A stretch of DNA of 64,000 bases from Rhizaria sp. SCN 62-66 (GCA_001724265.1 MEDY01000042.1:186001-250000); one strand, 5' to 3'. Counted from the stretch's first letter, positions 3,001 through 61,900 are shown. Numbers and translations: made by a program. The notes: generated by a model from the sequence alone, not told the origin.

Positions 3001-6000
3001 GGGGAACTCTCCAATAGTAAACTTGCCGTCAGCGGGCATTATCAGAGTACTGCCGAGGAATTGCACCCCCAGGGTGCTCGTTGCGCCCGTGAGATCGGGA
3101 ACAAGACTCAGGTACACGACAAGTTTACCGATGATCTCGACATCCTCATTCCCCCGACCAACTTCGCGCCCGTTGGAGTCCATTACAATGGCTTCGACTA
3201 ACAACGTTGTTGCAGGTGCGGCAGGCTGGTCTGGCACAACGTCTGTGCAGATGATGGTGACGTTTGAGGGAACGGGATTACTGCCACTGACGATCTTAAT
3301 GCTGGGCGGCAACCCAGCCGGCCCGGAAATGAGTACAGCACCTTGTGTCAGTGTTGAGCACACAGGCGTGAAGGTAAATCCAGGTGCTTCAATCTCGATG
3401 ACGTCGCCATTAGCGAAACCACGCTCCGGTGTGATCACAATCGTCATGTTGCTGGCCACGCCCACACGAGGGTCATCAAGAGTTGCTGCAACAGTAATGA
3501 TATCGCCTTGCAGACTGTAGGTGGCAGTATCCTGCGTGACAAGAACGCCAAACTTGTTGTGAAGCATCATTGTAAGCTCCAGCGGCGACGGCAGCGAGCG
3601 CGGCGTTTTGATATTACAGGCAACGGCAACTGTTGTTAACGCTGTCACGGTTGTGGTCGGTGCTTGAAACATGATCACCGTGATATCGGAGGTCGACGCA
3701 GCTGTGTCAGCACTCACAGTTGAAGGAGATGCCGAGTTAACACTAATGCTGCAGCCTGTCACTGAATTTGTACTGTCTGTTCCAAACTCAGGTAACGAAA
3801 GGGTGATAATATCGCTGTTGAGTAACACACTACTCAACGTGAAATTGATATTTAGATTTGTAATCGTGGACACAGTCGCTGGTGTGAACGTTGCTGTAAA
3901 AGGAGCGGCACTTACAAGCTGAATTACCCCATAACTAATTGTGTACGTTGACGGATTAGTCATATTAGTCATGAACTCGTGGTCAACCGTAACCGCAACA
4001 TAGTGAGTATAAGTAAAACCACTAGGCGGGTTCAGCGCCAAACTGCACGTGATTGTGAGTGTGCTAGCTTTTGGAACCCGTCTGCCAAACGTAATAGTAG
4101 TCTGTGCGTTATTCGCCGAGGTTGAATTTGTTGACGGACTGCTTGTTGTTGAGACTGTGATGTTATTGATCGCCCCGCCAATCATTGAGCTTGCAGTACA
4201 GGTGTAGCCATTGTCAGCGTAAAGCAGAGGCGACGTCACAACAACTGCGTAGCCGACTTCTATAACCAAAGGCAGATTGTTGATGGAGAATATCATGGTG
4301 CTTGGGCGACCGCTGTCATTACGCACCAGCGGGTTTGCGGTCAACAACAACGTGGGCTTCGACAGGCTTGGCGTTGCTAAGGGTGCGGTGCCGCTCATGT
4401 TGTACATCGCCAGTGTCACATTGGTGGGGGTAGTCACCATGTTTACAGCAACCTGACCCACTGTAATTGTAACAGGACCAATCTTAACAATCGGATTACA
4501 GGTAATAACGAACTGAGGAGTCGGGTTGAGTGTGGCGCTCGTTGTGACTGTCAGATTGAATGTAAACAATTTATCAGTCGGAGTGCTGACGTCAACTGGG
4601 GACATAATCACCAGCGCCGATCCAGTAGGTGCAATTTTCACGGTGCACGTTAGAGGCATATGATTGTTGAACGTGAAGCCCGTAGGCAGAGTCAGCGAGC
4701 CCTGGACGGCAGTCGTCCCGCCAACGGTGGGCATTGACGCGAAAACTGGTTCGATTGTGGCAGTAAAGCCAGTGATTGCACCAACGAAATTATTCTCAAG
4801 TACAACGGTGGCAGTCAGCGGACCGTTTATTGTAGATGGTGTAACCAGCTCTGGAAGAGTTGTTGAGGCAGTGTAACGCATGCTGTTGGTTGCGCGCGCA
4901 GTAATATTTGACGTAACGGATATTATGGGACTGGTGACTGATGGGTTGACGTAATACTCACAAACAATCTTGGTGCTAAGATCGGAAAAGTTGTAAGTTG
5001 TATGCCAACCAGGCGGATCTGGAGAAAGCATCGGCAGAGAGTATGAATAAACACCATTCGAATGCGCGACTAACATAGGGCGATTAGTGGCATCTCGGCC
5101 GACAACGTCTTTGCCGGTGAAAACGCAGGAAAAGGGGCTGCCTTCTTGCATGTTGGCGTAAAGCAGACCAAGCGTCACTGCACCACCAGAGTCCGCAGTA
5201 ACCGTGCTACCGATAAATGTAATCGTGAGCGTGCTGTATGCGCCGATAACGTTGGGCAGTAGCGCAGTGTCCACACGGTAAACACCGGTTTCAGCCAATA
5301 TCGTTGTGTACGAGTCTGAGTTCTAACTAATGGGGAGCGTACCAATGTTGCTGACAGCTGCCTTGACCGTCACAGTGTCGCCCACCGCCGCGGGATTCAT
5401 TGCACACGGGCAGAAAACAGTAATGTCCAACAGCGGATTCTGAGCATTGGAACCGACACCAATGCTCCAGGCTTGTCCTGTTGCAGTGAGAGTGACATCT
5501 TGGCTCACCGCGTAACAACCACATCCAGGCGGGTCCTGACTTAGTACACTAATAGGAGTCGTTGTAAATGCAACCACGTTCCCGTTAGTAAATGGAGTCA
5601 GTGGATCCATGTGCATTGCAATTGTAAGACCAGTGCTCGTGCCGGCAACCTTTGAAGTCGGTGTAACAGCGACTGTGAGCGCAGGGGGCGTGACGGGCGG
5701 CGTGAACGAGGCGGTTTTGGTTGCGACAACAACAGTACGGTAGTCCACGAGCGAAAAAACAGCGTCACTCGGGCTTGGCATGCCAGTCGGCATGACAATG
5801 ACGCATTCAATCTTGTACGAGTGCGAAAGTAAACTGTTTGGCTGCAGAAATGTACCAGGAAGAGGCACCGATATCGTGAGCTTGTTCGCAGGAAAACCCG
5901 ATTCCGAGAAGCTGAACATGGCGTTGGACTGCAGCGCATTGTCGAATGTAAGGTTGCAGTGTAGCGGGTCTGATGAGAGCGTAAAACCGTCCAAAACGAC

Positions 6001-9429: not shown

Positions 9430-10187
9430 CGGGTAGTGCTGGATAAGAACCTTTGCAAGTTGTTGGTCGTGTATGAAACACTCAGTAGTCGGTGAAGTTC
9501 CTTTTAGAGTCTGTGTGAGGTGTAGGGCGTGGTTGGTGAGAGATCAGAGGCGTGGATGGCCGGAGTGAGTCAGTGCAAGGGCAGCGCAAGACTGAAATGA
9601 AGTTGATAAGATAGATGACAAAACACAGCAAGGTAATTTAGTGACCAATTCAGCATAAGCAATGCAAGAGTTGTACTGACGGACTATATCGTGAGATATA
9701 GACCTTGAGAATGTCGTGCGGGAAGTTGCCTCGAGCCCACGGTCACCCCGTTTAAGCTTGAGAATGTGTTCGCCGTCTTATCTTCAAGCCTCATAACCGA
9801 CCCCTTAAGACTGACAGTGTTGCTAGAACAGAGGATCCAAGTCCTAACACACAGTCTTCTACACTATATTTTTCGTTTGATCTTCTACATTGCCACTATG
9901 ACCTCTTGCGCAGCTGACGTGGCACACACGCGACCCGCACCCACCTCTCCAACTGCGGACCTTCGTCTTTCTTCGCCTCAGCCATACCATAAGCGCTGAA
10001 CTTGCCAGTTTTACGAGATTCCTGCTGTGTTTATATAAAAATACTTGTTTGTCTTGGCTATTTTTGACACACGCTTGATTTTAGCTCGTACCGATCACTC
10101 ACTCCGAACCTCCGCTCTCACCCTTCTCTTCACTTGCTCTCTCACCGCCTCACCCCGCTTGCCCCGGCCCCCAGCTCGCGGCTTCCC

Positions 10188-12524: not shown

Positions 12525-13385
12525 TTACTCGTCAGCAGCAGAGTTACTCTTGCTGCCGTCGTCGTCATCCGCAGTCTTGCTGTTGTCCTTACTGTCAGCA
12601 AGTGTGTCCGCAACAGCAGCAACCGCCTCAGTCTCCTTAGCATCAGCATCAACAACATCAGCAGCAGCAGCGCCAGCCTTGTCGCCACTGTCCTTCTTGT
12701 CCTCCGCCTTCTCAGCAGCGATGACCTTCACATCAGCATTGGCAACGACACTCTTCGCATCCTTCTTGTCGCTCACAGTAGCAGTAGCAGCAGTGGTGGC
12801 TGCGGCGTTGTTCGTTGTGTTGGGAGTGTTGGCGCCAGAGTCGTTGCTGCTTTGCACAGTGGCGACACGAGAGGCATCCTCGCTGACCTGGACACCGCCA
12901 ACATTCTCCTCCTGCTTCAGCTTCGCGATCATCGGGTACTTGCCCATAAAAACGTTGTAAAAGTGCTTCATGCTGTCCAGCTCGGCCAGCGTGAGCCCCT
13001 GGAGACTCGGGCAGTCGAGATAGCGATCCTCGGTGCTGAACTTTGCGGCCGCGCGCGTGATGTCGCGACCCGCAAACGCTTCGTACGCACCGCCGGGGCC
13101 GTAGAAGCGCGCGCCAGCGGTGCAGTCAAAGACCTTGTTTGCGATGGAGATGTACACGGGGCGGCCCTGGAGTCCGTCGCCGTAGCGCACCTCCGCGCGC
13201 GTCATCTCCTTGAGTGTCGCGGGGTCGGGCTGGTGCGCGGGGTTGAACAGCACGGGCTGCACGACGTCCGCGGCCGTCTTCGGGGGCGCCTCGGGCAGCG
13301 GAAGACGCGTGAAGAAGTAAAAGAAGGCGATGACTGCGCAGGTGATGATGATAGCGTAGTCACCGAAGGATAAGGATGAAAGCAT
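12525..13385 (-). CDS. Membrane-associated progesterone receptor (MAPR/PGRMC/Dap1)-family cytochrome b5-like heme/steroid-binding protein with acidic low-complexity tail, about 286 aa
   Basis: N-terminal TM helix (YAIIITCAVIAFFYFF); motif VYISIANKVFDCTAGARFYGPGGAYEAFAGRDITRA...F.GKYP. First ATG of the ORF is at 13385. Stop TAA. Confidence 0.9.
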   Translation of the reverse strand: MLSSLSFGDYAIIITCAVIAFFYFFTRLPLPEAPPKTAADVVQPVLFNPAHQPDPATLKEMTRAEVRYGDGLQGRPVYISIANKVFDCTAGARFYGPGGAYEAFAGRDITRAAAKFSTEDRYLDCPSLQGLTLAELDSMKHFYNVFMGKYPMIAKLKQEENVGGVQVSEDASRVATVQSSNDSGANTPNTTNNAAATTAATATVSDKKDAKSVVANADVKVIAAEKAEDKKDSGDKAGAAAADVVDADAKETEAVAAVADTLADSKDNSKTADDDDGSKSNSAADE

Positions 13386-14214
13386 GTGCCTGGCGAGTGG
13401 GTAGAGTGTGGTAGAAGAAAAACAAGGTGTAAGTTGAAGAGAGTACGAGTTATGAAAGTGCAATAAATATATGATACGATAAAGCTATACCAACACTGGT
13501 AAACAATGCTCCGATGGCGATAGACGGATGATATGTGAACATATGCCTTAAGTTGCAAGGTAGAGGAGCATTCGTGGTTCAGAAGCTCTGCCCGACCCGA
13601 TGCAATGTCTGGTTCGAGGTCTCGGCAAACAGTTCAATTCACGATCAGTTTAATCGTCAAGGCGGAATATAAATGATTGATCTGCATTTAAAGTTGGCAG
13701 ACACAAACAATATTTGTACTATGCGCTTGTAGGTTATGTGTGGCGTCCTAGGCAACCATTTCTGTATTCGGTGGTCGGACGGTCTGGTCACTCCCTCCTT
13801 TCTCCCTTCGACTGTGCTTGCCCGCCGCTGTATGTACACTGAGATTATATAGCATATTTGCCAGCGCACAACGCTTTGTATCTTGTTTGGGTCGCGGTTT
13901 TTTCTTTCGACTGCTCCTTTGTCTGTGGTGCATCACCTGATATTAGACTTGATGTCATCTTCAACTCGAGTAACCACCAAGACCCATTCTCTAAACCTCT
14001 CGACGAGACTCATATCTCACTTTTTGCATTCAAAACTCAATTTTTTGATTCCTTGCTTTGTGATGCATTGTTTGCAGTTAGGCGCCCTTTCCCAAGGCGC
14101 TATTTTCTCTCCACAGGGCCTTTGCCAGCACTGCACCAGCCAAGCTCGCATTGCTCCGTGCTCCAACTTCCTGAGTGCTTTGCAGCCCTCTACCGCGAGG
14201 CTAAGCACCAAGCT

Positions 14215-44589: not shown

Positions 44590-46003
44590 TCAGTGCAGCG
44601 GCGTGGCCATGGCTGTGACCGTGGGCTCGAGCAGTTCGGCGCGCGACTGCACCAGCGCCAGCTCCTGGCGGCCCAGCACGAGCGTCTTGCGGATGGTGCT
44701 GTGTACAGCGGCCATGGCCTGCTCGAACGCCGTCTGCAGCGGGCTGTGGCGGATGATCTGCGCGAAAAGCAGCGCCGTCGCCAGGTCGCCCGTGCCCGCG
44801 AAGTGCACCGGGTAGCGCGGGAGACGCAGGTGGTACTGGTTCGTCGTGCCGTCGGCGAGGCGCTCAGAGGCGAACGCATGGATGATCTCCTCGTGAATCT
44901 ATACAAATCATCATAGAATGCAAACATAGAAGTCAAATGAGAAGTTATTGAAGAGAAGCAAGATCAAGTAGAAATGACAGATGATTATACGAATATTTTT
45001 GTTATATGTGCGTATATGTCGTACCATTTCGGGGAGCACGTCGGCGACGTCCTCGGGATGGAGGCGCTGGCGCACGCGCGAGTAACTCGGAGTGATGTCG
45101 ACCTCGAGATCGTCCTCCGTGACGGGGACAGGCACGGTCTCGCCGTTCGCGGTCGTCGCCATCGCCGGTGCGAAGGTCGCCGAAGTGATGAACACGGTGC
45201 GCGGGCCGAGCGCGTGGAGCTTGTTGCAGGCGAGGCGCGCGGACGCGAGGTCAGTGATGGTGACACCAGTCAGAAGCTCCGCCTCGGTCTGGTTCGGGGT
45301 GGTGATGTCCGCCAGAGGAAGCAGGTTGTCGCGGTACTTGGCGACGAAGGTCTCGGGCACGTAGAGCGAGCCGTCATCCCCCATCACGGGGTCGCAGAGC
45401 ACCTTAAGCGCGTTTGTCGAGTAGTAGCTGCCGCTGAGCGGGGAAGAGCCGGAGCTGGGGGCCGGGCTGGCGCGGCGGCGCTCGGCCTTGAGAGTCTTGA
45501 TCGCGGCGGTAACGCCGTCAAAGAGCGCGTCATTGGGGATGTAGCCCGTGAGAATGTGCGAGTAGTGCTCCATGAGCTTGTTGGCGCGGAGGCCGTGGAA
45601 CATGTCGGCGAGATCGGCCGGCGTGGTGAACTGGCCGTGGCGGATGTGCGGGTAGCCAGAGTGGTTGCTGAACTGGCACGTGTTCAGCGGGTCCGCCTCG
45701 ATGCCGTGCAGCTGCAGGGGAAAGACGGCAGACTTGTTGCCCACGTAACCATACACTGCGCGAGAAAAATGCATGAAGATGTCAGAGGGAGAAGGCATAG
45801 GGAAGAGTGAGTGGGGAAATGCAAATACGGCGTGGGTTGGGAGAGAGTGGACGGATCTAGCTCTGCGTGGGCGCAAACATGAGTGTCCTTGCGGAATAGC
45901 AACTGCAAGGCGTACCAACAGAGGACTGAATGCAGAGCACGTGGACCTGAGAAGTGCCGGAGCGGCGGGGCGACGGGGAGCGCGAGCGCGACGCGGACGA
46001 CAT
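44590..46003 (-). CDS. PDXK: Pyridoxal kinase (ribokinase/PfkB superfamily), about 375 aa. Exons 46003-45916, 45755-45025 and 44898-44590
   Basis: Spliced product reads [66 protein letters not shown] and anion-hole motif FAGTGDL. Stop TGA. Confidence 0.95.
44899..45024 (-). other. Spliceosomal intron (126 nt)
   Basis: GTACGA..GTATAG, AT-rich; brings GTGD into frame. Confidence 0.88.
45756..45915 (-). other. Spliceosomal intron (160 nt)
   Basis: GTACGC..GCGCAG; restores the [11 protein letters not shown] motif. Confidence 0.9.
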
Positions 46004-47095
46004 CTCCGCGATAAACTGCACGGGGAAGAAGGCAATAAAATGGAGTTTGGAGAGACAAGGTGAGGCGTTCTAAAGGCATACAAAAAGTAAGCATCATAGA
46101 GCCACACTTAATATCGCGAAATGATACCCGTTAATCAGTTGCACGATGGGATGCATACGAAATACAGTGTCGAAATATCCTCTTGATCCTGCCCAATGCC
46201 TGCCAGTCGACATTGCATACGATGACGAAGTATGATCACAAAGTGAAGATAAGCACGTTTGTGGAAGTTCGGAGGTGGTATTTCGGTTGAATTAGGATAT
46301 GTATAGACATTATCTATGTGATAAAAATTATAATCTGAATCTAAGCTAAGCTCACAGTAAAACAATCGCGAAAAGAAAACAGCGCACTATGGATTTGAGG
46401 TTCAAAACAACACAAACCATACCAACAACGACGACTGGTAGCATCCCCTTTTCGAGAACCGAGAAGGGAACTAACGTAAGACAAATATATAACGATGGTT
46501 AGATAAAAATAGGCGTGGCTCGGCCTATCTGCAAGAGTTAACTACTCCTTTTGACGCTGATGGAACAACACATTCAGCGAAAAAAACAACAAAAAAACTC
46601 AACAGTATCGGAGTCACCGCCTTGCTCACAGGATACAAACATAAAATTAAAAAGGATTCAAAGCGCAAAACGAATGGTGATGATATTACACGGTGATTCG
46701 TGGCTATTCGTGTTTTCGAAGATCGCAGTAGCTAGAGACACATGAGTCCTAGTGACATTTGCAGCAATGATATGGACATCATTGATCCTGCTCATACATA
46801 CTTGGATAGGACACTCACAGCGGGCTCTGCAACGTGTGAATAACGCACTAATAGACGACGAACAAAAACACAAACAAAAGAGAGAAGATGATTCGGACAC
46901 ATAGCCGACTCCAAGATGTTGACTTAGTACTCGAAACAGCAAACAACGAACAGACAAGTAGCAAGAGTGAACATATGTAGTAAACAGCACAGAGTTAATT
47001 ATTAACATTTAATACAGAAACGCGGTCATAAAACTCATCTACAATGTTAGATTTGACGTAATCAAGGCTGACTTGAAAATATGATAATGGACATT

Positions 47096-49006
47096 TCACA
47101 CCTGGTTACGTCCATACATCATAACATCGCCGCCATTACTATTGTTTCTGCTATGCATCCCACTATTATTGTTACTATTACTGTTGCTATTGCTGTTATT
47201 GTGCCCATGACCGTGGCCGTGACCACGGTGCTGGTGCTGGCGGCGGCCGCTGTCCTGCCATTCCCTTAGCGCGGGGTCGTCCGGCCGCGGCCCCGAGGCC
47301 TTAGTCAGCCGCGCGACGCCATCGACGGTGATCTCGACCTGGTTCGGCAGCGCGTAGGGGTACGCCACTTCCTCCGTGGTCAGCGGCGAGCGCATTTGCT
47401 GCCGGCCGCAGAGGTCAATCAGGTGCCTGCGGTTCATCATCGCCACCTGCGTGAGCATGTGAGAAGCGCGCTGGTCTTTCTTCTGCTGCCGGACCGCGTC
47501 GGGGTTCACCTGCTGCGCGGCGCGGCGCCGCTCGAGCGCTTTGACGCGCTCGGCGTCTGCGTCGAGCACGGTGATGAGGTCCTCAGGCAGGTCGAACGAG
47601 TCAAGCGTCTCGCCTCCAGAGGTATCGACCCAGCCTGAGGAAACCATGCGCGTGCGCAGCTGGTTGTACAGCGGGCTCTGGCGGAAGCGTGCGAAGGAGT
47701 CTTTGTCCATGAGCTCGAATACCTGCGACTTGACGGAGTCGAAGAGATTGGAGATCTTGTCCAGCACGACTTCGGCGCGGTCGGCGTTCAGGTTCGACAG
47801 CTGCGCGGTCAGTTCCTGCAGCACAGTGTCTGAGATGTTCACCTGAGCCGGGGCGCCGCGCTTGCAATAGAGCTCGAAGATCGAAATGGCAGTCTTGGAG
47901 AGCTCGGCTGCGATTTCACGGTTCAAGATCTTGGTCTCGAGCAGTTTGTTCATGTCGGCCGAGTCGAGCTTGTTCTCCCGCAGCAGCGCCTGGCACTTGT
48001 TGACGAACGTCTGCACTTCGCGCCAGAAGAGGATGTTTTCCTCCGAGAACTCGGACTTCAGGAACTCGACGAACGTGGCGTATCCGACCTTAGAGTTGAT
48101 GATGTCGGCCAAGTTGGAGATGTCAGGCTGGCGACCGAGATAGTAAGCCGCCTCGGAGTCCTTATCGAGGAAAGCGGAGGTGTACAGCGGGCGGTACAGT
48201 GCGGCGACGACGACCCAGAGCATTCCGGCCATGTAGATCGAAAATGCGACGAAAGTTACGTCGACACTCGACTTCATCGCACCGACCAGCACGAAATGCA
48301 AGATCAGCAGCAGCGGCGCGCCGACAGCAACGCCGCGCAGCTCGTGTTTAGCGAGTCCGGAGTCGGGCCCGTATGCCGCGAGCCCAAACGCTAGCCCGCC
48401 GAGCGCGACGAGGTGGATCGCGGTCATCACAGCGCGGAGGATAAAGAGGGGATGGCTGGGCATGTAGTAGGGAATGCACGGCAGCGAGGTCATGACGTGG
48501 CCTGTGGGAAAGCCGTTGCGGCCGACGTCGGAGCCGACGACGCCGCCGATGATGGCGGCGTCGATGACGAGCACGACTGCGGTGAGCACCATGTAGGACT
48601 TAGTGTTAATGACACGCTTCGCGGTCACCATGGACCAGTCGAGTTTGCCGGCCGTCTTGGTCTCTTCCGTAGCGGTCCATTCCGTGATCTGGTTAATAAT
48701 CTTGATAATGCGGAGCTGGTAGAGCACGTACATAGCACGCAGAATAAACGACTGCAGCACTAAAGTCTCACCGACGAGCAGTAGGCTGAGGAAGGCGTCG
48801 CAAGGGACCTTCTCTGAGAGCCCCGAGGTGACTGTGATTGTGGTCGATATCGCAAGTCCGACAATGCAGAGCAGCATCATGTACAGCGGGCGCGTGTTAA
48901 AGGGGAACGTCGGGTGCCGCGTGATGATGAGGTATGCTGCGATGAAGACGGAGAGCGGGATGAGGCACTGGACCGCCCACACGACGGTCGAAGTGAGACT
49001 CACCAT
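47096..49006 (-). CDS. 7TM-RGS protein (seven predicted TM helices plus a regulator of G-protein signalling domain), about 636 aa
   Basis: Seven hydrophobic segments in the first ~280 aa. RGS motifs GYATFVEFLKSEFSEENILFW, IFELYCKRGAPAQVNIS and VFELMDKDSFARFRQS. His/Gly- and Asn/Ser-rich tail. First ATG at 49006. Stop TGA. Confidence 0.9.
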   Translation of the reverse strand: MVSLTSTVVWAVQCLIPLSVFIAAYLIITRHPTFPFNTRPLYMMLLCIVGLAISTTITVTSGLSEKVPCDAFLSLLLVGETLVLQSFILRAMYVLYQLRIIKIINQITEWTATEETKTAGKLDWSMVTAKRVINTKSYMVLTAVVLVIDAAIIGGVVGSDVGRNGFPTGHVMTSLPCIPYYMPSHPLFILRAVMTAIHLVALGGLAFGLAAYGPDSGLAKHELRGVAVGAPLLLILHFVLVGAMKSSVDVTFVAFSIYMAGMLWVVVAALYRPLYTSAFLDKDSEAAYYLGRQPDISNLADIINSKVGYATFVEFLKSEFSEENILFWREVQTFVNKCQALLRENKLDSADMNKLLETKILNREIAAELSKTAISIFELYCKRGAPAQVNISDTVLQELTAQLSNLNADRAEVVLDKISNLFDSVKSQVFELMDKDSFARFRQSPLYNQLRTRMVSSGWVDTSGGETLDSFDLPEDLITVLDADAERVKALERRRAAQQVNPDAVRQQKKDQRASHMLTQVAMMNRRHLIDLCGRQQMRSPLTTEEVAYPYALPNQVEITVDGVARLTKASGPRPDDPALREWQDSGRRQHQHRGHGHGHGHNNSNSNSNSNNNSGMHSRNNSNGGDVMMYGRNQV

Positions 49007-49815
49007 GCTGCGCGCGCGGGGGAGGAAAAACAACGCAACGCGGGAAACGCGGTGAATGTTGCTGTTCCGGTAGACCCGAGGGTGTGTGCGCCTCTGTGCT
49101 GCACTGCTGGTTGAGAGCGGAGAGAGAGACCGCGCGGAGTGGGGCCCCCCGAAGGGAGTAGAGGAGACGACGGCTGACGGACGGGACTGGTCCGCTGGGG
49201 CGCAGGAAAAGGGTTACTGCTCCTGGTGCCCGATTTTAAGAGGTAGGTAAGTTGTTTCTATATAGAAAACAAGGAAACAGTCCGCAATGGCAGAGTTAAT
49301 GGTTGATACGTAAGGATGAGCGAAAGGGTTGAGGGGAGTTTGAGTGAGCAACCGTCGAAACGCATTCGTATTCAAAGCGCGACGAAACAGAGGGTTTTAG
49401 AAAGACAATAAAGGAGTTACAAATATAGAGGTTCTTATAGCTGTTTGAACACAATCACATCCATGTTGACGATCAAGCAAGACGCACAAAACGGAACAAA
49501 GTCACGCCACCAGTCACTTGCTCTTGGTTGGTGGCAGTCGGGCTGGGTTCCAGTCGGTCAACAGCAGTCCGTAATGTCACCTTTCGTATGTCTCATTCCA
49601 ATCGTCAACCGTCACATAACAGCGGCAACGGACACTAACGTACTATTGCATTTTCTTGTTTTATATTCTTTGACAAGCAGAACCCATCGTCGACCGCTGT
49701 CGACCACCTTGCTCAACTAACCACAAAGCCGTTGCCATACCGCATCCGCCAACTACTTGACCTGCTCCTTAACTGTCATCGCTGAGCGTTTGACGCTTCT
49801 GTCTTTGCCTGCACG

Positions 49816-51333
49816 ATGGCTAACCGCACTGACACGCTTGCGCGCCAAATCCACGGCAAAGACCCGCAGCTGTTGATCGAAAAGATCATCCGTAACAAGG
49901 TCTACGACACGCAGTACTGGCGCGAGGAGTGCTTCGGACTCGACGCGGCCACGCTCGTGGACAAGGTTGTCGAGCTCCGCGACGTTGCCGGCACGCTCGG
50001 TAGCATGCGTGTGCCGTCGCGCTTTATCTGCCTGCTCGTGAAGATGTTACAAATTCAGCCCGAGCGCGAGATCATCCTCGAGTACGTCAACGACCCCAAC
50101 TTCCGCTATCTGCGTCTGCTCGGCGCCGTGTACCTCCGACTCACGGCCTCCGCGCGCGACATCTACACCACGCTCGAACCGCTGCTGACGGACGCGCGCA
50201 AGGTCGTCGTCACCGACTCCGACGGCCGTCACACGCTGTCCTACGTAGACCAGGTCATCGACGAGCTACTCACGCTTCCCACCTTCCACGAGATCGCGCT
50301 TCCGCGGCTCGCCAAGCGCGCACACCTGGAGGAGCAGCGGCTGCTGGCGCCGCGCGTCTCTGCGCACCCGGACGGCCACGTCATCGCGCTCGCGGAGGAC
50401 ATCAGCGAGGAGCTGAGGGCGCTGGTGCAGGAGGAGCTCGATACCGAGAGCGCCCGGCGCGGCGCCGTGACGGTGAGCGAGGAGGCCGTGTCCGCGGTCA
50501 AGGCCGCCATCGCCGCCGCGTCGGCTGCGGAAGCGGGCGCGGGTGCGAAGGACGAACGGACCGATGACGACAGGCGCAGTGGCCGCGGCTATGACCGTGA
50601 ACGCAGCAGCCGTGACCGTGACCGTGGCCGTGATTACTCTCGGAGTGACCGTGAGCGCACCGGTGACCGTGGCTATGACCGTGGCCGTAACCGTGACCGT
50701 GACCGTGACCGTGACCGTGACCGCGAGCGTTCTTCAGGTGACCGTAGCCGCGACCGCGAGCGCGACTCTGAGCGCGGTCGCGACTCTGATCGCGACCGCA
50801 ACCGCGACCGCAGTGACCGTGACCGTGACCGTGACCGCAGCAGCAGCAGCAGCAGCAGCAGCAGCGGCAGCAGCGGCGGTTATTGCAGCAGTCGCGACTC
50901 CGACCGCAGCGACCGCAGGGACCGCGACCGCGACCGCGAGCGGGACTCTGAGCGCAGTCGCGATTCGGACTACGACCGCAGTGACCGCGACCGCGAACGC
51001 ACTCGCGATCGCACGAGTGACCGCGAGCGCAGCGATGATCGTGACCGTGAGCGCAGCGATCGCAGCGACAGGGACCGTGAGCGTGACCGGAGTGAGCGCA
51101 ATGACCGTGAGCGCAATGACCGTGAGCGCAGCTCTACTTCTGAGCTCAGCGCTGGCGACCGTAGTCGTGCCTCAGACCGTGACCGTGAACGTGACCGTGA
51201 TCATGAGCGGGACCGTGAGCGTGATAGGCGCAGTAGCAGCGGTGGCAGCAGCAGCTCTCGGAGTGCTGATGTTGGCGCTGACTCTGCTCCGAATGGCAAC
51301 GACGCTGCTGCTGACACGGCTGCTGCTCAGTAA
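49816..51333 (+). CDS. PRP38: Pre-mRNA splicing factor Prp38 (PRPF38A-like) with a long RD/RS dipeptide tail, 505 aa
   Basis: MANRTD...IHGKDPQLLIEKIIRNKVYDTQYWREECFGL, FICLLVKMLQIQP, FRYLRLLGAVYLRLT. Stop TAA. Confidence 0.95.
   Translation: MANRTDTLARQIHGKDPQLLIEKIIRNKVYDTQYWREECFGLDAATLVDKVVELRDVAGTLGSMRVPSRFICLLVKMLQIQPEREIILEYVNDPNFRYLRLLGAVYLRLTASARDIYTTLEPLLTDARKVVVTDSDGRHTLSYVDQVIDELLTLPTFHEIALPRLAKRAHLEEQRLLAPRVSAHPDGHVIALAEDISEELRALVQEELDTESARRGAVTVSEEAVSAVKAAIAAASAAEAGAGAKDERTDDDRRSGRGYDRERSSRDRDRGRDYSRSDRERTGDRGYDRGRNRDRDRDRDRDRERSSGDRSRDRERDSERGRDSDRDRNRDRSDRDRDRDRSSSSSSSSSGSSGGYCSSRDSDRSDRRDRDRDRERDSERSRDSDYDRSDRDRERTRDRTSDRERSDDRDRERSDRSDRDRERDRSERNDRERNDRERSSTSELSAGDRSRASDRDRERDRDHERDRERDRRSSSGGSSSSRSADVGADSAPNGNDAAADTAAAQ
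50590..51230 (+). repeat. Degenerate hexamer repeats (GACCGT/GACCGC/GAGCGC) encoding Arg-Asp/Arg-Glu, including (CGTGAC)5 at 50692-50721 and (AGC)9 at 50839-50865
   Basis: Directly visible; explains the spurious VT/AT-repeat ORFs in other frames. Confidence 0.9.
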
Positions 51334-51744: not shown

Positions 51745-54700
51745 ATGACGTCCTTTTCCCCCATTGTGCCGCCTCTCAACACGTGTTTAGTGCTTCTTAT
51801 TGGCCCCCTCGTACGTAAAGCTACATTTCTCTCTGTTTAATCTTCTATATCAGCTTCAAATCCACTGCCATAGAGACCAATTCTAATATCCTCTTAACCC
51901 TTGCATCACGCTCACATGTCTCTTGCTCCTGCACTTCTCTATCAACCCATTCTGCCATAACACAGCTTGGTGGCTTTACGACCGGTCTATGCGGCTTCGG
52001 CGGCGCGACCATCTTTCAGCTCGTATGGCGCCTGTGCGTGGAGATGATGGGCGTCGACATGGGTGACGGCGACGTCGCTGAGGGCAACCGCCGCTTACTC
52101 GTAGTGTCCGCAGTCCTCACGACAGCACAGTACCTCTCCGTCGCCGTTGCCGCGCTGCGCAAGCCCATCAAACAGTATCACATGCGGTACTTCATTACCC
52201 TGACGCCCGGATTCGCGCTCTTCGTCTGGCTCGGTTCTTATTTAGCGACCGAGCTCAAGTCCGAGGCGTCTACCCACCTGTTCGGCTGCATCCTCGCCGG
52301 CATCGGCTTCTGGGCCATCATCACCACGCATGTCATCGCCACCAAGGACGACGACATGAACCTCCGCGTGTCCACCATCAAGGCCGTGTGCGCAAAGGCT
52401 GGGTATCACACCGAGTTCGAGCACATCAACACCGGCGCGGCGCGGCCCCCTCAGCTCACACAGCAATACGCGGGCGCTGGCGCCGGCGCTGGCGACTCCG
52501 CTAACGGCGCTGATGGTATTGTTGACGGCTTGACTTACGAGGCTGGCGGCGGCTTGACTTCGATCAAGGCACTCAAGTACGAGCCGCCGAGACTGGCGAC
52601 TGAGTCTGACGAGAGGCGTCACTCTGTCTCGCTCTTGCCGTCAGTTCAATCGTACTCATACACGAGTGCGAACAACCAGAACGACAACAACAACAACAAC
52701 AACAACAACAGTAGCAGTCTCTCGATCATCAATAGTGTCAGCGCGAAAAGTGCTGCTGCTGACGCTGCGGCGAGCAGCTCAGCCAGCGGAGTGACCGTGG
52801 GCAACGTCGGCGCAAGTATTGGCGTCGCCGCTGGCGCCGGTGTCCGCATCATCCCCCCTCACGCGGGCGCTGCGGGAAATGTAAGTGCTCCTTACAATGG
52901 CAGTGTCGGAAGCGTGCAGTCGTCGCCGCAGTCGTCGACGCTGGGACAGATGGTGAACAATAATAATGTCAACCACAGCTCGGAGACCCTTGATGAGACG
53001 TCGAGTGTCGCGACTGACGCGTTCACGCCCCACTTAGTCCCCGGTGTAAGTGTAAGTTCCGCGAACGATGCAAGTACCCCGCCCACAGCTTCGGTCGCCA
53101 TGCCTGGGCGCACTCTCTTCACCAATAACAAAGCGACCGCAGCCGCAAACGCTGCTGATGCCAACAGCAACACTGGTGCGGACACTGTAGCGAACATGGC
53201 TCATAACGCTCCCGGCAGTCTCAGCCGCAATAACAACGGCAACGGGAGTCCCGGCGGGTTGCTGCCGGGGGCTGCCACTGCGAACGGCGTCGGCAGCTTT
53301 GGCGGCTCTGGCGCTGGCGTTGGCGTTGGCTCACGGCCCCGGTCGATTTCGGCTGATATCCTTGTCATGCCCAATAGTATCACCAATACCAATATCAATA
53401 ACAGCAACACTGCTAACGCCGCTGATGCTGTAACTGGTGGCGCTGACAAGGCCGGCGACAGCACTGCACAGCATCATAGCTCTGGTGCCAAGGCCAAGGA
53501 TGCTGCGACTGCGGCTGGCAAGCCTGCAGCTGCGGCAACAAACAATAACAGCACGACAGTTGACAGTACTACGGTAACTTCAGTCGGCAGCGGTGCATTG
53601 AGCCACTATGACGCAACCGCTTTGCGTCTTGGTTTCACTTCCAAGAGTAGAAACAACAGCAGCAACGCTCTCGGCGCCGCGGGCAACAGCAACCATAGTG
53701 GTCTTGGACGGGGCCTCGGCGCCGGCCGCAAGCGCTCGTTCGTGCTCATGCGCGCGCCCACCAGTTCTGGGTCTAACAACGCCAATAACCACACCGTCGA
53801 TGTGGGTGGAAGCCTACCGCGCTCACAGTCGCTGCTCTCGGCGTCTAAGGGGGGCGCGTTTAGGACTAAGGGGGACAGTCGCAGTGTGAGTAGGGTTGCT
53901 GACCACTTAGACGGTGGAAGCACACAATTGCATGGCGATGGGAGCGCGGGCAATGCTGGTGTGCGTGTCGGCTTTCTCTCAGTCAAGACAGTGCAGACTC
54001 GTGGAAACAGCAACAACACCGTCACCAGCAGGGCGTCTAAGGGCAACGGCGAGCCCCTTAAGCAAGCGTTGCTACATGACACTGATGACCGCGAGTACTC
54101 GACCATCCACGAGACCACCAACACCCTCGACGACAATGACGGCGACGGTGATGGTGACGATTGCGACGACGAGAATGCTGGCGAGGACGATGGCGACGGC
54201 GTTGTGGACCGCAGTAACGTGCTCGTTGCGTCTTTCGCGCCCGCCGCCCTCAACGCTCACGCGGCCGCCTACGCCGCTTTCACAGCATCGCTCTCTGCCA
54301 ACCACAACTCCAGCAGTGCCAACCCAGCGAACCTTAGCAGCAGCAGCGGCGGCGTGCTGATCGACGCCCCGGGCTCGCCCGACTGCCGCAGCGACACGGC
54401 CGGCAGCGTGTTCAAGTTCGAGTACAACCCCTACTAGGACGAGGACAACGCGGCCGAGCTCGGCCACTCCGGCCCGCTCGGATTCGCGACGCCCCATGCG
54501 CGCGACGCCGTCGCCCATAACAGTGACAAGTGGGGGTACAACGCCGTCGGCTGGCGGCGCTACCGCTGGGCCAAGGGGTTCAAGTCCGTCTGCAAGAGCA
54601 AGCCAGCTGCCGTTACCGGTGTGATCATGGGCTGCGTCGGCGGCTTCCTCAACGGCGCGCTCGGCATCGGCAACTCGTCACTGGTGGCGTACTTTAGCGC

Positions 54701-55115
54701 GCTGCAGCTGACGGGCACGGCGATGCGTGACACGTTCGCGCTCATCTACACCGCGGCCGCGCCCAGTCTGTTCGGCGCACGCGTGTACTACGGCATGGTC
54801 AAGACGGACGAGTGGCTTATCTACACAATGGGGCTGCCGATGAACTACGTGGGCACGTTTGTTGGGCTGTACTTGCACAGCTTTGTGCATAACAAGGTCA
54901 CGCTGTCGTTTGTGCAGGCTGTCGTGCTCATCGGGTCGATTTTGCTCACGAAGCCATGGGTGTCAGGGACTTTCCACAGCGTGATGCTCGGCGTGTACAT
55001 CGCTGTCGTGCTCATCTCGGTCGGAATCGCGGTGTGGAGGGTGCGCAGGGCGAACAAGATCCGCCGGGAAGTGCAGGAAGAGTGCGAGATGATGCTACAA
55101 GAGCTCGGGGGTTGA
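51745..55115 (+). CDS. TauE/SafE (TSUP)-family transporter, about 1,071 aa, with a very large low-complexity central loop and one in-frame TAG at 54435-54437. Exons 51745-51810 and 51966-55115
   Basis: N-half motif LLIGPL|LGGFTTGLCGFGGATIF plus further TM helices. C-half motif GVIMGCVGGFLNGALGIGNSSLVAY plus about 4 TM helices lies in the same frame after the TAG (54621-54438 = 183 nt, no other stop). Terminal TGA. Confidence 0.85.
51811..51965 (+). other. Spliceosomal intron (155 nt)
   Basis: GTACGT..ACACAG, pyrimidine-rich, phase 0. Confidence 0.88.
52686..52709 (+). repeat. (AAC)8 microsatellite encoding poly-Asn
   Basis: Directly visible in the sequence. Confidence 0.9.
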
Positions 55116-55943
55116 GTAAAACATCGCTGCTGCAAGCAAGCACATATCACTCGGGTCCTCGAAGACCGCTGCAACAGTAACCGCAGCGATCGCTTGTCGA
55201 AGATGCCGTGCATGTTTTTTGAGATAATTATTATTTAGTTACGCTTTTTACTTGTTACTGTGCCTTTTAACTAGTGTCAACATTTGCGACGAATGTCTTT
55301 TGTGCTGTATGGAGACGATTGTAGCTCCTCGTGCCACTTACTCTTCCGCCACTGGTCTGAGATGCTGATGTTGAGAGGGATGTTGTCTTGCGATGTCGTC
55401 ATACCATCTTGAATACAGCGTTTTGTTTTATTTATTCAAATCTTTGTGGCTTCTCTGACGCATGCATATCATTCTATCGTCTTGTGGAAGCAAACTGACT
55501 GTGGGTAGCCCACAGTCATGTCAGGTTGGAATTCATGTTATGGAAATCTCGAATATCTCGACTATACAATGTTTATTAAGTTCGCATTGAATATAAACTG
55601 TCGAATCTATAATTGAAAACCTATGACATTTGATATTATATGCATAGGGTCTTGTCCGACCTCGATATGAATGTGTCTTTGTGATCGAGGCGCTCACGGA
55701 GTTGGAATCAACCATTATTTCGACGAAATCAAGGATTTACTGTCAAATCCAAAGACACGCGAAAAATGAAATGCAGAATTACTTACTTTCAATACGTTCA
55801 CATGTTCTTACCAAAGCCACTTTGATATAATCTCTTTTCCTACGTAGAACACCGAGTGGTTAGAAAGATACGCTTCAAGTCGTTCGCAGCAGCGCTCTCT
55901 ATCGATATCTGCCGCGCGCTGCCCGCGCCTTCTTCGACGCAAA

Positions 55944-58900
55944 ATGTCTCGGGCTGACCATGGACGCGACATTAATGCGCGCGTGCTGGTGCTGCCGATT
56001 GACTTTGGCTCAGGCATCGTCGAGCTTCACTTCTTGCGCGCCACCGACGGTGTCTGGTACGTTACCTCAGTGGCACCCACTTGAAGAACTCACTTTACAG
56101 CGCATACTTTGATCATTTTTTAGCCTTTATCACGTGCTAACTCGCGTTGTTATGCGTTGTTCATTCGCTTTTGTAGGTGTTTGACGGTCAGGGAGCTCGA
56201 CTCACTGTTGATCCGTGCTGAGATTAACATCAACGACAGCATGCTTGCAGGCGACGCCGCAAGTTACCAGCATCAGTATCGCCCGCGCCCTATCTCGATG
56301 ACTCCCGGCCGTGCGCAACAGATGCAACAGCGCCGCTCATCAGCCACCGTGGCTGAGGACAACAAGAAGGACGCCGCTGCTAGGGCCTATGTGCGGCAGA
56401 CTTGCATCGAGCTCGGACTCGCCTCCTGCGCAGTACGTTAACGTTGGCGAAATCGATTAAAAACGCATGGATTATATGCTCGCAAAAATAATTTCAATTA
56501 GTTTTCTACGATATTTATTGCTTACCTAACTCTTGATTGCTCTATCTCATGTTGCGCAGGCTGATAACGACGAGATGTCGCTGCTGCGCCGCGTCGGCGC
56601 AGTCGGGGCCCGCGCACCTAAGGCCACTCTTATCCCCATCGACCACGGCCTCTACCTCCTGCGAGTGTTCGGCCTTGCTGCGGCCGCGCTGCGCATTGAG
56701 GCTGCTCTGCAGCATCTCGTCTACGTGCGTCCCCGTCACATGAACGCCGGCTCGCAGCAGGCTCTCGTGTCGCTGGTGACCGACAACACGATGTTAGCAG
56801 GCGTAGATGCTACCGCTGGCAATATCACAAACCCTACCGGTGCTAGCAGCGGCGCAAGCATTGGCAGCGTGTCGCAGCTACTCTCTTTTGATGACGACGA
56901 TGCTGGGGTTGCCGATGACTGTAGCAGCGCAGGCAACGTAAGTGCCAGTGACAATATCTATCACAACGACAGTGACCACAACTTTGCGAGTGCATTTGGA
57001 TCTGGAGGCGGGTATAACACAACAGCGGGCGCCAACGCTAATGTGCGGTCACGATTAAACGCCTCATTCTCAATGTACAACTCCACACTGTTTTCTCCGC
57101 GTGGCTCGGGTCCGAGCGCAGCCGCAACTAACAACAACTCAACTAACAGTAGTCCTTCAGGGCTTGGTCACAGTCTTGGGGCAGCTCGCAGTAACAACAG
57201 TATGAACGTGAACATTAACAGCGCCGCAAATAAGGACGCGAGTATGCTTTACCGCGCAAGTACACCCACTAACGCCGGCGTTTATGCTGTGCCGAACACC
57301 CAAAACGTGAATGCGATCGCAAACTCGAACAGCAGTGCGAGTGCAGCTGTTGTAGGGGGCACTGTTAGTGTTGCTGGCCCAGGTCAGGCACGCGCGCGCG
57401 GCCGCAAGCGAGGCGGTAGGAGGCCAAGCGCAGCAGTCCCTTACGGTCACTTTCACGGTATCGGTGGCTTGGTAGGTGCTGAGGCCGCTGCGGCTGCAGC
57501 AGAGGTAAACGCTTTGTATATTCAAGAGCAGCGCTATACTCTTGATATATACATCTACGATGGCGTCACCGATGCAACCGCGATGCTCTCAACTTTTCTT
57601 ACTCTGGCAAGGCAGGCGAACGCACGCGCAGTGCCGATGTCTCCTGCAAAGGAGTACGCAAGTGGCAGCGCAACTGCGCACAGCGTCACGGAGCTGAAGC
57701 TGGCAATGGGTAGTTGGATCAAGCCAGGTTTGCGGTTCGACGCAACCTCAAGCGCTCCAAACGCTGACACCGCTTCTAACAGCAGCGGCACAAGTGCAAG
57801 CAGCAGTGACGCAGCTGCAAACAGCGCAGGCGGCTGTGCCACTCGTTTCGACGCATCGTTAAGCGTTTTGAATCAGCTTTGCAATCAAGCCACTGCAAGC
57901 ACCAACAGCAGCAACTTAGGTACCGGCGTGGGCCCGAGTATCAGCGCGCGCCCTGGCAATTTCACGATGCCAGCGGAACCGCAAGCGCAGTCAACATCCC
58001 TGGCGGTAACAACATCTGCTTCACAACAACAGCCACAGTCATGTGGTGTAATGCCAAGGCTGCCTGATTTCTCGATGAGCTTTGAGTCGCGCATTGAACC
58101 GTCACTTGGCGATATCGCCTTTGGTGGTTCTTGTCCCAGCCGTCGCTTGGAACAGCATGCTGTGTGCACCCATATGTACTCGAGCAACAATAACACCGAC
58201 GCCAGTGGCTTTACTCAAGCACCGCCGGTGAAGCTTGAGCCCATCCGGGTTACTCCAGTAATCCCGCTGCCGCACGCGCGTAAAGCGGCTTCGCGCACGG
58301 GCCAAACACAGAAGGGCAAGCTATCGCTAGAGAACGAAAAGGTTTTTAACGAGTGGTACAGTACGCACGTGCGAGATCAGGACCACAGCACGATCTATAA
58401 CTCAAATTCCTACATGGCACCTCAGCAATACGGGCAATCCGCACCAACGCATCATTCACAGCACCAATGGCTTGGCAACGCTTATTACAACAACGGCCAG
58501 AATGTATATGCCAACGCAGGCATGTCCCATCTCTCAGCGCCAACGTTGCCACCAATTGACCCACACTTAGTATTGCAATTTGTGCCACAGCAGGAGTCGC
58601 AGCCGCGTCTTGCGTTGCAGTCGCCACAGTCAGAGCTCCCAGCTCCTTTGCGTCAGTACCAGCTTTCACCGCCTCAACATCAGCAGCAGAGTCAGGCCCC
58701 GCTTTTGACTCAAAATGACGGGTACATCAACAGCCACAACCAAAGTGCAGGCCTAAACGTAATGCTTCAGAGGCAGCAACCATTTCAGCTACAGCATGGA
58801 TTTGAGACTCAGCCCGTGTTGTCAGACTATACCGAGTTAGAGCCGTACGCCAACGGTTTGCTGCCTTACAAACAGGTCCAACAGCAACAGTTTAGACGCG

Positions 58901-61900
58901 AGCAGCAACCGCGCGAGCAAGAAGTATCTTGTCAGCAGCAGCGCCAGCAAGAACACCAACACCGACTACAGTCAGAATCTAAGTATTGTGAAGATGAGTA
59001 TAAGCAGCTTCGCGGCGATGAAATCTACGTTAACTCGTATACCTGCGCCGACAGCAGCGTCCCACTTGGCGATAGATTTAGTAACAGTTACACAAAGGAA
59101 AGCTCGACGTCATCGAACGGTACAAATTCGGCATTGCCAACACCACGTGTCAAGCGCCCTTGCAATTCAAGCACTAGTGAGCACTCGGAAAACATGCCGA
59201 CTTTTAACGGTGACAACTTTATTGGCTTGCATGCGCCTGCAAACGAAGTTCAGCCACGTGGCAATGGGTATACTTCTTTGCCGATACTAGCAGGCGCGCT
59301 TCTGCCGCCTGCTGATCGAACATGTGAATACAGCAGTGAAGCTGTACGCAGCACGTATGTTGGAATAAACGCGAATGAGGGCCAGGGTAGCCAGAGCCCT
59401 GGTCCTCTTAGCAACATGTATGACAACAGCAACAGCACCACAGCTGTCGCGCTATCATCATCTCTGGCTACTCCAACTAATGCGCGGAATGACACGAATT
59501 ACTCCAGTATGAACAACAATGATAGTTATCACGTGCAAGACATCCGCTCAAGCATTGCAACACCAACCGTTGATTTGCACGTGACAAACTTGTTTGTCAC
59601 ACCAGAAAAGACGTCGTCTTCGGGGAGGCCGCCTGGTGCTCCGGTGCGAAATGCGCCTTACTACGCGGTGACTTCAAACACATTGGACTCCTCACCTGCC
59701 TTCGCGTTCTTGTCAACTCCAGCTTCACACGTTGAGCTGAACGCTCTCTAGACCGCACTTAATGCTCATGTAAGCACACAGTTACAGCGTGGCCACGTAT
59801 TGTCACTAAATGAGTCTAGCGCGGAGAGTTGTATGCACAAAAACGGCGACGATGAGCACAAACAACGTTTTGATCAAGATGCTGCTCACAGTACTGGCAC
59901 GATGCCCTTTGCAATGGCTAGTGCAAGCGGTTGCCTGAAGAGTAGCAAACTGAATCAACAGCTCTACCACCGATCTAGCCATGAAGTGGCTGCGTCGTCT
60001 TTATCGATGGCATTAAGTGGCACAAAATGTATGAGCTCGCGCGATGTAACTGCCGTCGCCACGTCTCTAGCAACTGCGCCCGTGGTTTGTGCCACTGTCC
60101 AGTATAGTCAGCAAGAGCAAGTTCGAACGCGCAGTGCGTCTGCTCAAGACAATACTTTGGCTGCTGCTGATACACCCCCGCTGAATATCGTTTGCAATCG
60201 CTCCAACTCGATTGCCCCTAGCCACTCGCGCATTTCAACCTCAACAGTTGCGAACCCCATGTCCGACAACGGTTCTGTTTTGCACGCAAACGCCAACACC
60301 AATGCCCGTGCACACAGGCATAATCACATCCGGAGTCACAGCCCAGTTCCCGTAAACGTGAGTAGTCACACTGGAGTGACAGGCCACTCAGACACGCATC
60401 GACACCCAACCGCGCACACGCAAGGTCACGGCAACGCTCGCAGTCACGCACACTCTCATCATCAGTCTTATAACCATCAGCGTCACGGTAACACACAAGC
60501 TCATTCACATCCGCACAGTGGTAGCAACGCTGTGCATGGACGAAGATCTGGTGATGGCGATAGCGGCGACGGAAGTAGTGCTTCGGTGGTGACTGTACAC
60601 AAGCATCGAGTGATCGTGGGCCCTTGCGCTGTCGCCGACATTCCGTGCCGCTACGCCGGCTGTCTTGACCCGCGCGGTCCATTGCATCCACACGCCGCGG
60701 CACTCACACATCTGAGTAGTACAGATGCGACTGAGCGTGAACACATGCTCAACCGCTTGCCAAGGCCAGTCGAACTTAGAATCAGTGCATCACCATGGAA
60801 GACGCCAATACTCGCGCCGCACCCGCAAACGCTTCTCCGTTACGTGCCGATCCACCCGTACTTCACAGTGGCAACTGTTGCATATCTAGCAGGTGTTCCG
60901 CAGTCTGCATCTTGCCTTCCGTTGTTGCAAGCTAACGAAGACGCGTACGCAGCAGCGCGTTTGAAACAACAACAACAAGAGCAACTGCTTCTTAGTGAGC
61001 AACAGCAGCAACAACTTGAGCGCGAACGCGAACAGCAAGGGCAGCGGCGTGAGCTATTACTTGAGCAGCAACAGCAACATCAACAACAACTGTCAGGACC
61101 GCATCCCATCACGGCACATCTGCTCGTTGATAAGGGCACTGAGGTTGCAGTCCTCGGAAATGACTTTAGCGGCGCAATCAGCACAAGTGCAAGCGCAACT
61201 AGTGCGACTAGCTTAGGTACAGCCAGCGGGACTGGCGGCAGAGTTGCGATGCCAGACTCTAGTCAGCGTCGTCGCGGTCAAGCTGCGGCAGGCAGTCACG
61301 GACCTAGCGCGTTATCCCTCGGCCCAACAGCGTTGCGCCAACGCAACAACGGAGACAGCAGAGTCCGCCTTGGTGAAGTCATGACCGATCAAGATGCTAA
61401 GGAGGATTTGTACCACGACGACGAAAAGCACGGCGAAAGCAGGTCGGGTGACGGGTTTGGAGCCGCGACTCACAGCGCGGCCCCTGGCACTGGTAGGCAC
61501 TATGTGAACGCTCACGCCAATCGTGCCCAGCGCGACACAACGGTGCCCGCGTCTGCGGTAGAGCTAGGTCTCGCAACAACAACTGTCAGCGCAGGGGTCC
61601 ACGCCGAGTCTGCAACAAGCACGATGGATGCAAGCAGCCCCGATAGCTACGCTGATGTTGACGTGAAAAACTGCAACAGTAACTGCATTACTCGTGCAGA
61701 TGGCGGCGAAAACGATGATTTGGACAGCGAGAGTGATGACGACGATGTGTGGTATCGCGGCGGCTACCGTGCTGCAACTGCCGCTGCAATTGCAGGTTCC
61801 GCAGAGAGCTCGAGGCTTGCGAGATCAAGGGACACAAGGTCATCCAGGGGGTCAGAGTGGTTGTCCCCCGTTGCAAGCGCACTAAGCCCGGAACGCGCGC

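Follow-up and report, generated by a model that had tools for sequence, protein, structure and literature searches.

A gene for a TauE/SafE-like transporter raises the question of how one protein can be made from two halves that are separated by a stop codon. The gene lies in a stretch of 64,000 nucleotides (nt) from the assembly named Rhizaria sp. SCN 62-66 (GCA_001724265.1, MEDY01000042.1:186001-250000), which was analysed over its whole length and is called the window here, and its in-frame TAG occupies positions 54435-54437 on the + strand, codon 846 of the 1071 in the spliced model. The explanation that best accounts for the codon is a variant nuclear code in which UAG very probably specifies glutamate (Glu) and UAA and UGA remain stops, and by which the TAG at 54435 would be decoded. 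The cause of this decoding appears to lie outside the window, in a code change that affects the whole genome and has its own dedicated tRNA. At the level of sequence, the basis consists of TAG codons inside protein domains, the near absence of TAG at gene ends, a tRNA gene with the anticodon CUA, changes in the release factor eRF1, and acidic residues in the alignment columns opposite TAG. The gene itself is modelled as follows.

51745..51810, + strand: exon 1, 22 codons including the ATG; an inferred model, outside RNA cover
51811..51965, + strand: intron GTACGT..CAG, 155 nt, 41% GC; inferred, with the same donor as the introns joined in sequencing run X9
51966..55115, + strand: exon 2, with the N-half of TauE, a linker of low complexity and about 750 amino acids, the TAG, the C-half and a TGA; from the sequence

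Upstream of the TAG, an open frame of 872 codons (51819-54434) holds the N-half, and downstream of it a 225-codon open frame (54438-55112) holds the C-half and ends at a TGA stop at 55113-55115. The sequence-only reading of this DNA had placed a glycine-rich motif on each side of the TAG in the same frame, and both are indeed there, GFTTGLCGFGG upstream and GGFLNGALGIG downstream. It had also described the codons after the TAG as exon-like, which is borne out by a third-position GC content of 0.90 over the 20 codons after it and 1.00 over the 20 before. The upstream part matches the TauE family PF01925 over residues 50-172 (E 2.8e-6); the read-through protein, proposed earlier as the query for the same search, matches in two stretches, with a score of 28.5 bits that falls short of the curated cut-off of 32.6, a value passed by the homologues P0124 (61.5 bits), P0131 (60.8) and P0123 (38.5). 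That the halves make up one protein is supported by a search of the C-half against 1.84 billion representatives, which returned 39 matches, two of them the gene itself as cut in two by a standard-code gene caller (P0143 and P0121); both halves are matched in a single chain by 16 of the 37 non-self homologues (E<1e-3). A Guttulinopsis vulgaris protein is found among these homologues at 31% identity and hints, though only weakly, at Rhizaria.

The spliced model gives a protein of 1071 amino acids whose N-terminal start is similar to the start of P0124. Like the two-half TauE/SafE proteins of protists (YfcA-like, PF01925; P0123, P0124 and P0131), it would carry two glycine-rich membrane halves in one chain, from which it differs in the long linker with its TAG and in the Pfam score under the cut-off. 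An alignment of orthologues had been suggested for finding the residue in the TAG column, and in the closest homologue, P0122 (47% identity), that residue is Glu: P0122 reads YDPY-E-EE where the TauE-like protein reads YNPY-X-DE, X being the TAG position, and the motif opposite the site in the P0122 alignment is F-x-[FW]-[ED]-Y-[ND]-P-Y-E. A DNA contig of run X3 covers 52901-56686 with zero letters differing from the window, the TAG included; as X3 comes from study P2, a different study from that of the possible source run X1, and is identical across the site, the TAG is not an assembly error. Four runs contain at least half of the window's words. Three of these are labelled bioreactor or wastewater metagenome, and one of the three may be where the DNA came from. 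Run X5, with low depth and partial content, does not represent a divergent strain. In X7 and X9, both RNA runs, the TauE gene is represented by short pieces only.

The assembly that holds the window is eukaryotic, comprising 34.9 Mb in 714 contigs, and has at least ten dynein heavy-chain genes, which suggests a flagellate. Stop codons were surveyed in 895 kb, taken partly around flagged kinase, helicase and dynein loci and so not a random sample, by means of one coding filter for all codons, which 145,683 codons passed. The coding-like in-frame stops among these were TAG in 20 cases, TAA in none and TGA in two, both antisense to a repeat; the same filter passed 6665 GAG and 758 GAA codons. The first 664 kb contain 75 gene ends that have no splice donor close by, and UAA and UGA are kept as terminators in 73 of them (42 TAA and 31 TGA). 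The two that end at TAG consist of one antisense shadow and one frame that stays open for 16 codons before a TGA. Under a looser threshold there were ten candidate TAG ends, made up of four intron read-ins, four antisense shadows and two ambiguous cases. No depletion of in-frame TAG was seen in 3' untranslated regions, where 12 lie in frame and the other two frames together have 16.

Exonic TAG codons stand inside eRF1, Thg1, SUV3, a CIMR repeat and five kinase domains. SUV3, like the TauE gene, is split by public gene callers (P0171 and P0184), and it has a relative with 77% identity in public metagenomes (P0166). The codon occurs in two tRNA-processing genes, Thg1 (L100:1447, +) and queuine tRNA-ribosyltransferase, in the latter upstream of the domain (L098:827, -); with eRF1, this makes three translation-related genes among about 20 TAG sites, which may be chance. 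Many other flags for TAG inside a domain were dropped as intron acceptors or intron read-ins. Among kinase matches, 14 of 142 held stops, nine of them TAG only, and the 12 of the 14 that were fetched divided into five exonic and seven intronic cases. Helicase_C had three of 88 matches flagged for in-domain stops, one of them exonic; for Kinesin it was three of 54, where the sole TAG case is an intron acceptor and the other two were left unfetched; and for dynein AAA_6 it was two of 18, of which one was fetched and is intronic. In-domain stops were found in none of 20 ABC and none of 22 AAA matches, and the dynein paralogue alignment contains no exonic TAG column.

Two further TAG codons lie in the window:

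59749..59751, + strand: second window TAG, inside a 2282-codon frame that belongs to no known family; from the sequence and the X9 and X3 contigs
5323..5325, - strand: third window TAG, inside a frame longer than 2170 codons that is Ser/Thr/Val-rich and secreted-like; from the sequence

The first of these is spanned by a depth-23 contig of run X9 with zero differing letters, unedited and unspliced, and an X3 DNA contig over 59640-60500 likewise shows no difference. Another X9 contig is spliced at two GT..AG introns of the gene downstream of TauE (56055 to 56176 and 56432 to 56560), and this is the same gene as that with the TAG at 59749. The joints also confirm two 5' introns of this gene within 55846-56560.

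A dedicated tRNA was sought with a pattern for the anticodon arm with CUA, which gave one match genome-wide as against 13 for a reversed control pattern:

G000:C84:76008-76080, - strand: tRNA(CUA) gene, 73 nt (L031); from the pattern match and a cloverleaf fold

The gene is followed by a run of T and flanked by host-like genes, and its acceptor start and T arm are common to the tRNA-Glu of the same genome. Its identity is highest to tRNA-Glu(CUC), at 47/73, followed by tRNA-Glu(UUC) at 40/73, the Asp and Lys tRNAs at 39/73 each, and tRNA-Gln(CUG) at 33/73; being 64% identical to its putative parent, it would seem to be no fresh point mutant. It bears U11-A24, U13-G22 with A46, no base 47, U35 and A37, all of which are Glu determinants in E. 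coli (PMC9976931). In the Rfam tRNA search, 63 of the 506 candidates were scored and this gene was missed; it was the pattern search that recovered it. No second, intron-bearing copy of a CUA tRNA was present among eight matches to a second pattern that allows an intron (control 17), none of which is a tRNA, and tRNAs outside the two patterns could be missed. Locus L008 is an intron-bearing tRNA-Tyr-like gene.

The release factor offers a second line of evidence. A single eRF1 gene was found (L032), the other PF03463 match being pelota-like, and in its stop-reading motifs it carries the substitutions T32S, M34V, G57S and T58K (human numbering), with E55, NIKS, S70 and YxCxxxF kept intact. T32 and G57 are invariant in 117 eRF1 homologues, none of which has S32 or S57; K58 (1/117) and V34 are present in the closest relative, P0004, alone. 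P0004 (84% identity), which like P0122 and P0166 comes from public metagenomes, shares T58K and M34V and keeps T32 and G57, and it is possible that its eRF1 represents an earlier stage of the change. Thr32 is in contact with the third stop base and closes off the pocket there (PMC4605324, PMC5681627); residue 32 is Gly in Iotanema (PMC5304391) and Thr in the standard-code relatives of Iotanema (PMC9161772), and Thr58 is replaced by Glu in Paramecium (PMC5681627). The named eRF1 matches are all about 62-72% identical, and the fetched loci contain no ubiquitin gene. The eRF1 gene has an in-frame TAG of its own:

G000:C63:103370-103699 (L032), - strand: in-frame TAG at eRF1 codon 107 (human position 107), in the stop-reading domain; from the sequence

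The same TAG is present in L129, a contig from a public metagenome whose sequence agrees without a difference over 1626 nt.

As to the amino acid, the TAG of Thg1 lies opposite Glu77 in all four solved structures. Column 107 of eRF1 holds E in 106, D in 10 and V in one of the 117 homologues, and the SUV3 TAG column holds D in 94, N in eight, E in seven and other residues in nine of 118. When the TAG at eight sites was read as different residues, the summed Pfam bit scores were E 605.9, K 601.0, Q 600.1, S 596.0, Y 590.5, L 587.1 and W 585.0, a lead of 4.9 bits for E. Overall, it is close to certain that UAG is a sense codon throughout this genome, and very likely, on the evidence of the alignments and the tRNA, that the residue is Glu.

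Under this code, tRNA(CUA) would have been derived from tRNA-Glu(CUC) by the change C36->A and would be charged by glutamyl-tRNA synthetase, its charging and expression being presumed. It would decode UAG and not UAA. The eRF1 substitutions T32S, G57S and T58K, which fall in the GTS and TASNIKS motifs, may in turn weaken the grip on a G in the third position. The ribosome would then insert Glu, presumably as the sole residue, at codon 846 and continue into one two-half TauE-like transporter of 1071 amino acids.

Several observations weigh against this interpretation, some against the code and others against the residue. None of the RNA contigs listed spans the TAG at 54435. Run X9 is labelled 'probably DNA', a label at odds with its spliced joints, which show that mRNA of this organism is present in it, and contig L129 may share a sample with this genome. 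Several of the 20 TAG sites resemble antisense shadows, and two real-looking genes could end at TAG, which makes them candidates for a dual meaning of the codon:

L042:7399, - strand: long frame with a TAG, then 16 codons to a TGA
L088:2664, + strand: long frame with TAG-TAA at its end

The informative columns number only about four (Thg1, eRF1, TauE and SUV3), each with Glu or Asp, and P0004, the closest relative, is the one with Val in eRF1 column 107. At the site in kinase L035 the best solved relatives have Ala, Lys or Tyr, and opposite the site in the NEK-like kinase L036 they have Gln. Leaving out Thg1 brings the Pfam sums to E 518.5, K 517.7 and Q 516.6, and the lead of E down to 0.8 bits. 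A model built on neighbouring residues, applied to the 20 TAG sites, gives the top rank to Ser (+6.5 bits), with Glu in 17th place (-13.7) and Gln at the bottom (-24.0); in its control, Glu was recovered in 93 of 200 samples for GAA and in 125 of 200 for GAG. We read this outcome, as a conjecture, as TAG gathering in weakly constrained regions rich in Ser, Ala and Asn. Lastly, tRNA(CUA) has lost C36, which in E. coli is itself one of the strong determinants for Glu, and charging with Gln or Lys is common among amber tRNAs (PMC9976931).

These points on the residue feed the alternative that survives best, improbable as it is, namely that UAG is sense genome-wide and stands for Gln, Lys, Ser or a mixture, with tRNA(CUA) charged by another synthetase. 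The loss of C36 is in keeping with it, as are U1-A72, U35 and G73 of this tRNA, which are also Gln-type features in bacteria (PMC9976931), and the Pfam margins, which are under 2 bits once Thg1 is removed; the NEK-like site would favour Gln and the context model Ser. On the other side stand the body of the tRNA, which is nearest to Glu, the acidic columns of Thg1, eRF1, TauE and SUV3, and the last place of Gln in the context model.

Readthrough programmed at individual sites under the standard code is very improbable. At this locus it would be aided by a hairpin from the palindrome at 54452-54465, to which the sequence-only reading had drawn attention: the palindrome is real, a perfect 14 nt, and its role as a signal or hairpin is not supported. 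Six perfect 14-mer palindromes are found in the window, this one included, and it is judged incidental. The 60 nt after the TAG at 54435 do fold at -27.0 kcal/mol, about 1.3 standard deviations below the GAG mean, which is what such readthrough would call for. Over the 20 TAG sites together, the downstream RNA folds at a mean of -20.2 kcal/mol, compared with -19.2 (standard deviation 6.0) after GAG, so that the hairpin is not needed, and no base is shared at position +4 (C 8, G 6, A 3, T 3). The absence of a common cis signal thus argues against readthrough, as do the TAG codons within folded domains of housekeeping proteins, gene ends that are nearly free of TAG, and the existence of a cognate tRNA gene.

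Less probable again, and largely refuted, is the view that the TAGs are nonsense mutations, in pseudogenes or one bad haplotype, or errors of assembly. The extreme rarity of the codon would suit it, as would the splitting of the TauE and SUV3 genes by public gene callers. Its opponents are the coding context, which shows TAG and never TAA, the identical letters in X3, X9 and L129, and the fact that the sole eRF1 gene found carries a TAG.

Lower still in likelihood is removal of the TAG from the mRNA, either by an intron at 54422-54523 (+; 102 nt, GTACAA..AACAG) or by adenosine-to-inosine editing to a Trp codon. Thin RNA cover at 54435 leaves room for it; no joint from 54421 to 54524 was seen in four runs, in which cover is thin at that place. 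The intron was rejected: the doubt first cast on it was well founded, its GTACAA donor being non-consensus and its GC content 70%, as against 35-42% in three comparison introns with GTACGT donors, so that the segment is exon-like, and splicing would delete the YxPY-E motif that is kept in P0122. Editing is opposed by the last place of Trp in the Pfam sums and by the TAG at 59749, which is unedited in X9. Least probable of all is that UAG stands for pyrrolysine, which has only the CUA anticodon and the ARAGORN label 'Pyl' in its favour: the TAG columns are acidic, and the gene has a canonical cloverleaf with G18G19, a TTC loop, a 5-bp anticodon stem and a 4-nt variable loop, features unlike the architecture of tRNA-Pyl.

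If UAG does encode Glu, it does so sparingly, at 0.14 per 1000 codons or about 0.3% of Glu codons. No exonic TAG was found in the roughly 49,000 open codons of ten dynein loci, where about six would be expected at the sampled rate, and none in a stop-free frame of 10,037 codons in the window (13843-43956, +) that ends in a HECT domain (PF00632), where about one would be expected. Such rarity is consistent with a weak tRNA from a single gene copy, with which eRF1 may still be in competition. A tentative and rather unlikely extension is a leaky yet stable code, in which a weak tRNA-Glu(CUA) is set against a partly blinded eRF1, UAG is rare and avoided in very long genes, and codon 107 of eRF1, a UAG, serves as a feedback gate, more eRF1 leading to more termination in its own message. 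Against the gate is that it is one site, and that a given 430-codon gene would hold a TAG by chance in about 6% of cases. The bacterial prfB frameshift is a self-limiting release-factor gene. Another of this self-limiting kind is the gene of the Mimivirus class-I release factor, with its internal stops (PMC3521657). Both resemble the present case in having an in-frame stop-type codon in a release-factor gene, and differ from it in that the factor here is the eRF1 of a cellular eukaryote and the codon has a cognate tRNA and a single site. If true, the gate would amount to prfB-like autoregulation in a cellular eukaryote, and the leaky state would be an extant case of the ambiguous intermediate in a code change. 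As the codon is so rare, affected genes are split by gene callers and routine screens could miss the code, and hidden codes may therefore be under-counted in eukaryotic metagenome bins.

The other genes recognized in the window near the TauE gene are the following, and all five stop at TAA or TGA.

49786-51333: Prp38 with a long RD/RE/RS tail
47096-49213: RGS-domain protein
44911-46107: PfkB-type kinase
12525-13484: cytochrome b5-like protein
10068-11990: protein phosphatase 5

Elsewhere in the assembly, a divergent 18S rRNA gene of about 4.4 kb and 41% GC (L065, G000:C706:4459-8903) is a candidate locus of this organism. It is stretched by several insertions that resemble group I introns, one of them with an open reading frame for a 176-amino-acid His-Me homing endonuclease (PF05551, E 3.4e-14).

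Nuclear codes that reassign UAG only have been described in the rhizarian exLh, with UAG as Leu, and in Iotanema spirale, with UAG as Gln (PMC5304391), and phyllopharyngean ciliates read UAG as Leu or Gln (PMC11687900). The code proposed here is like these in that UAG is sense, UAA is a stop and decoding would be by a tRNA(CUA), and like that of Iotanema in that Thr32 of eRF1 is altered (T32G there, T32S here). It differs from all of them in the residue, Glu, and in an eRF1 that adds G57S and T58K, and from exLh also in usage, since most exLh orthologues contain at least one UAG (PMC5304391), a far cry from the small share of Glu codons seen here. An eRF1 for this code must read UAA and UGA yet drop UAG, for which the three substitutions are candidates, and the dropping of UAG alone bears directly on the question of why changes in UAA and UAG usually go hand in hand. 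The literature searched contained no nuclear code in which UAG is Glu and both UAA and UGA are stops, although most subscription papers lay outside it, so that a prior description is possible; in that literature, UAG-only reassignments give Leu or Gln, and UAG is Glu only together with a reassigned UAA. Among the latter, peritrich ciliates and Blastocrithidia read both UAA and UAG as Glu (PMC11687900, PMC12153298), and share with this genome a tRNA-Glu(CUA) and uneven use of the reassigned codon from gene to gene. They differ in that UAA is also Glu there, whereas no TAA occurs here in coding context, and in the share of UAG among codons, 1.4-1.7% in Blastocrithidia (PMC12153298) against 0.014% in this GC-rich genome. 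In Oligohymenophorea sp. PL0344, UAG is Glu and UAA is Lys, with ten CUA tRNA genes (PMC10553269). Neither the UAA of the former code nor that of PL0344 has its counterpart here, where TAA is the commonest stop. PL0344 differs further in having ten CUA tRNA genes to the one found here, and it is alike in the manner of decoding, since in both UAG would give Glu by way of a tRNA(CUA) most similar to tRNA-Glu.

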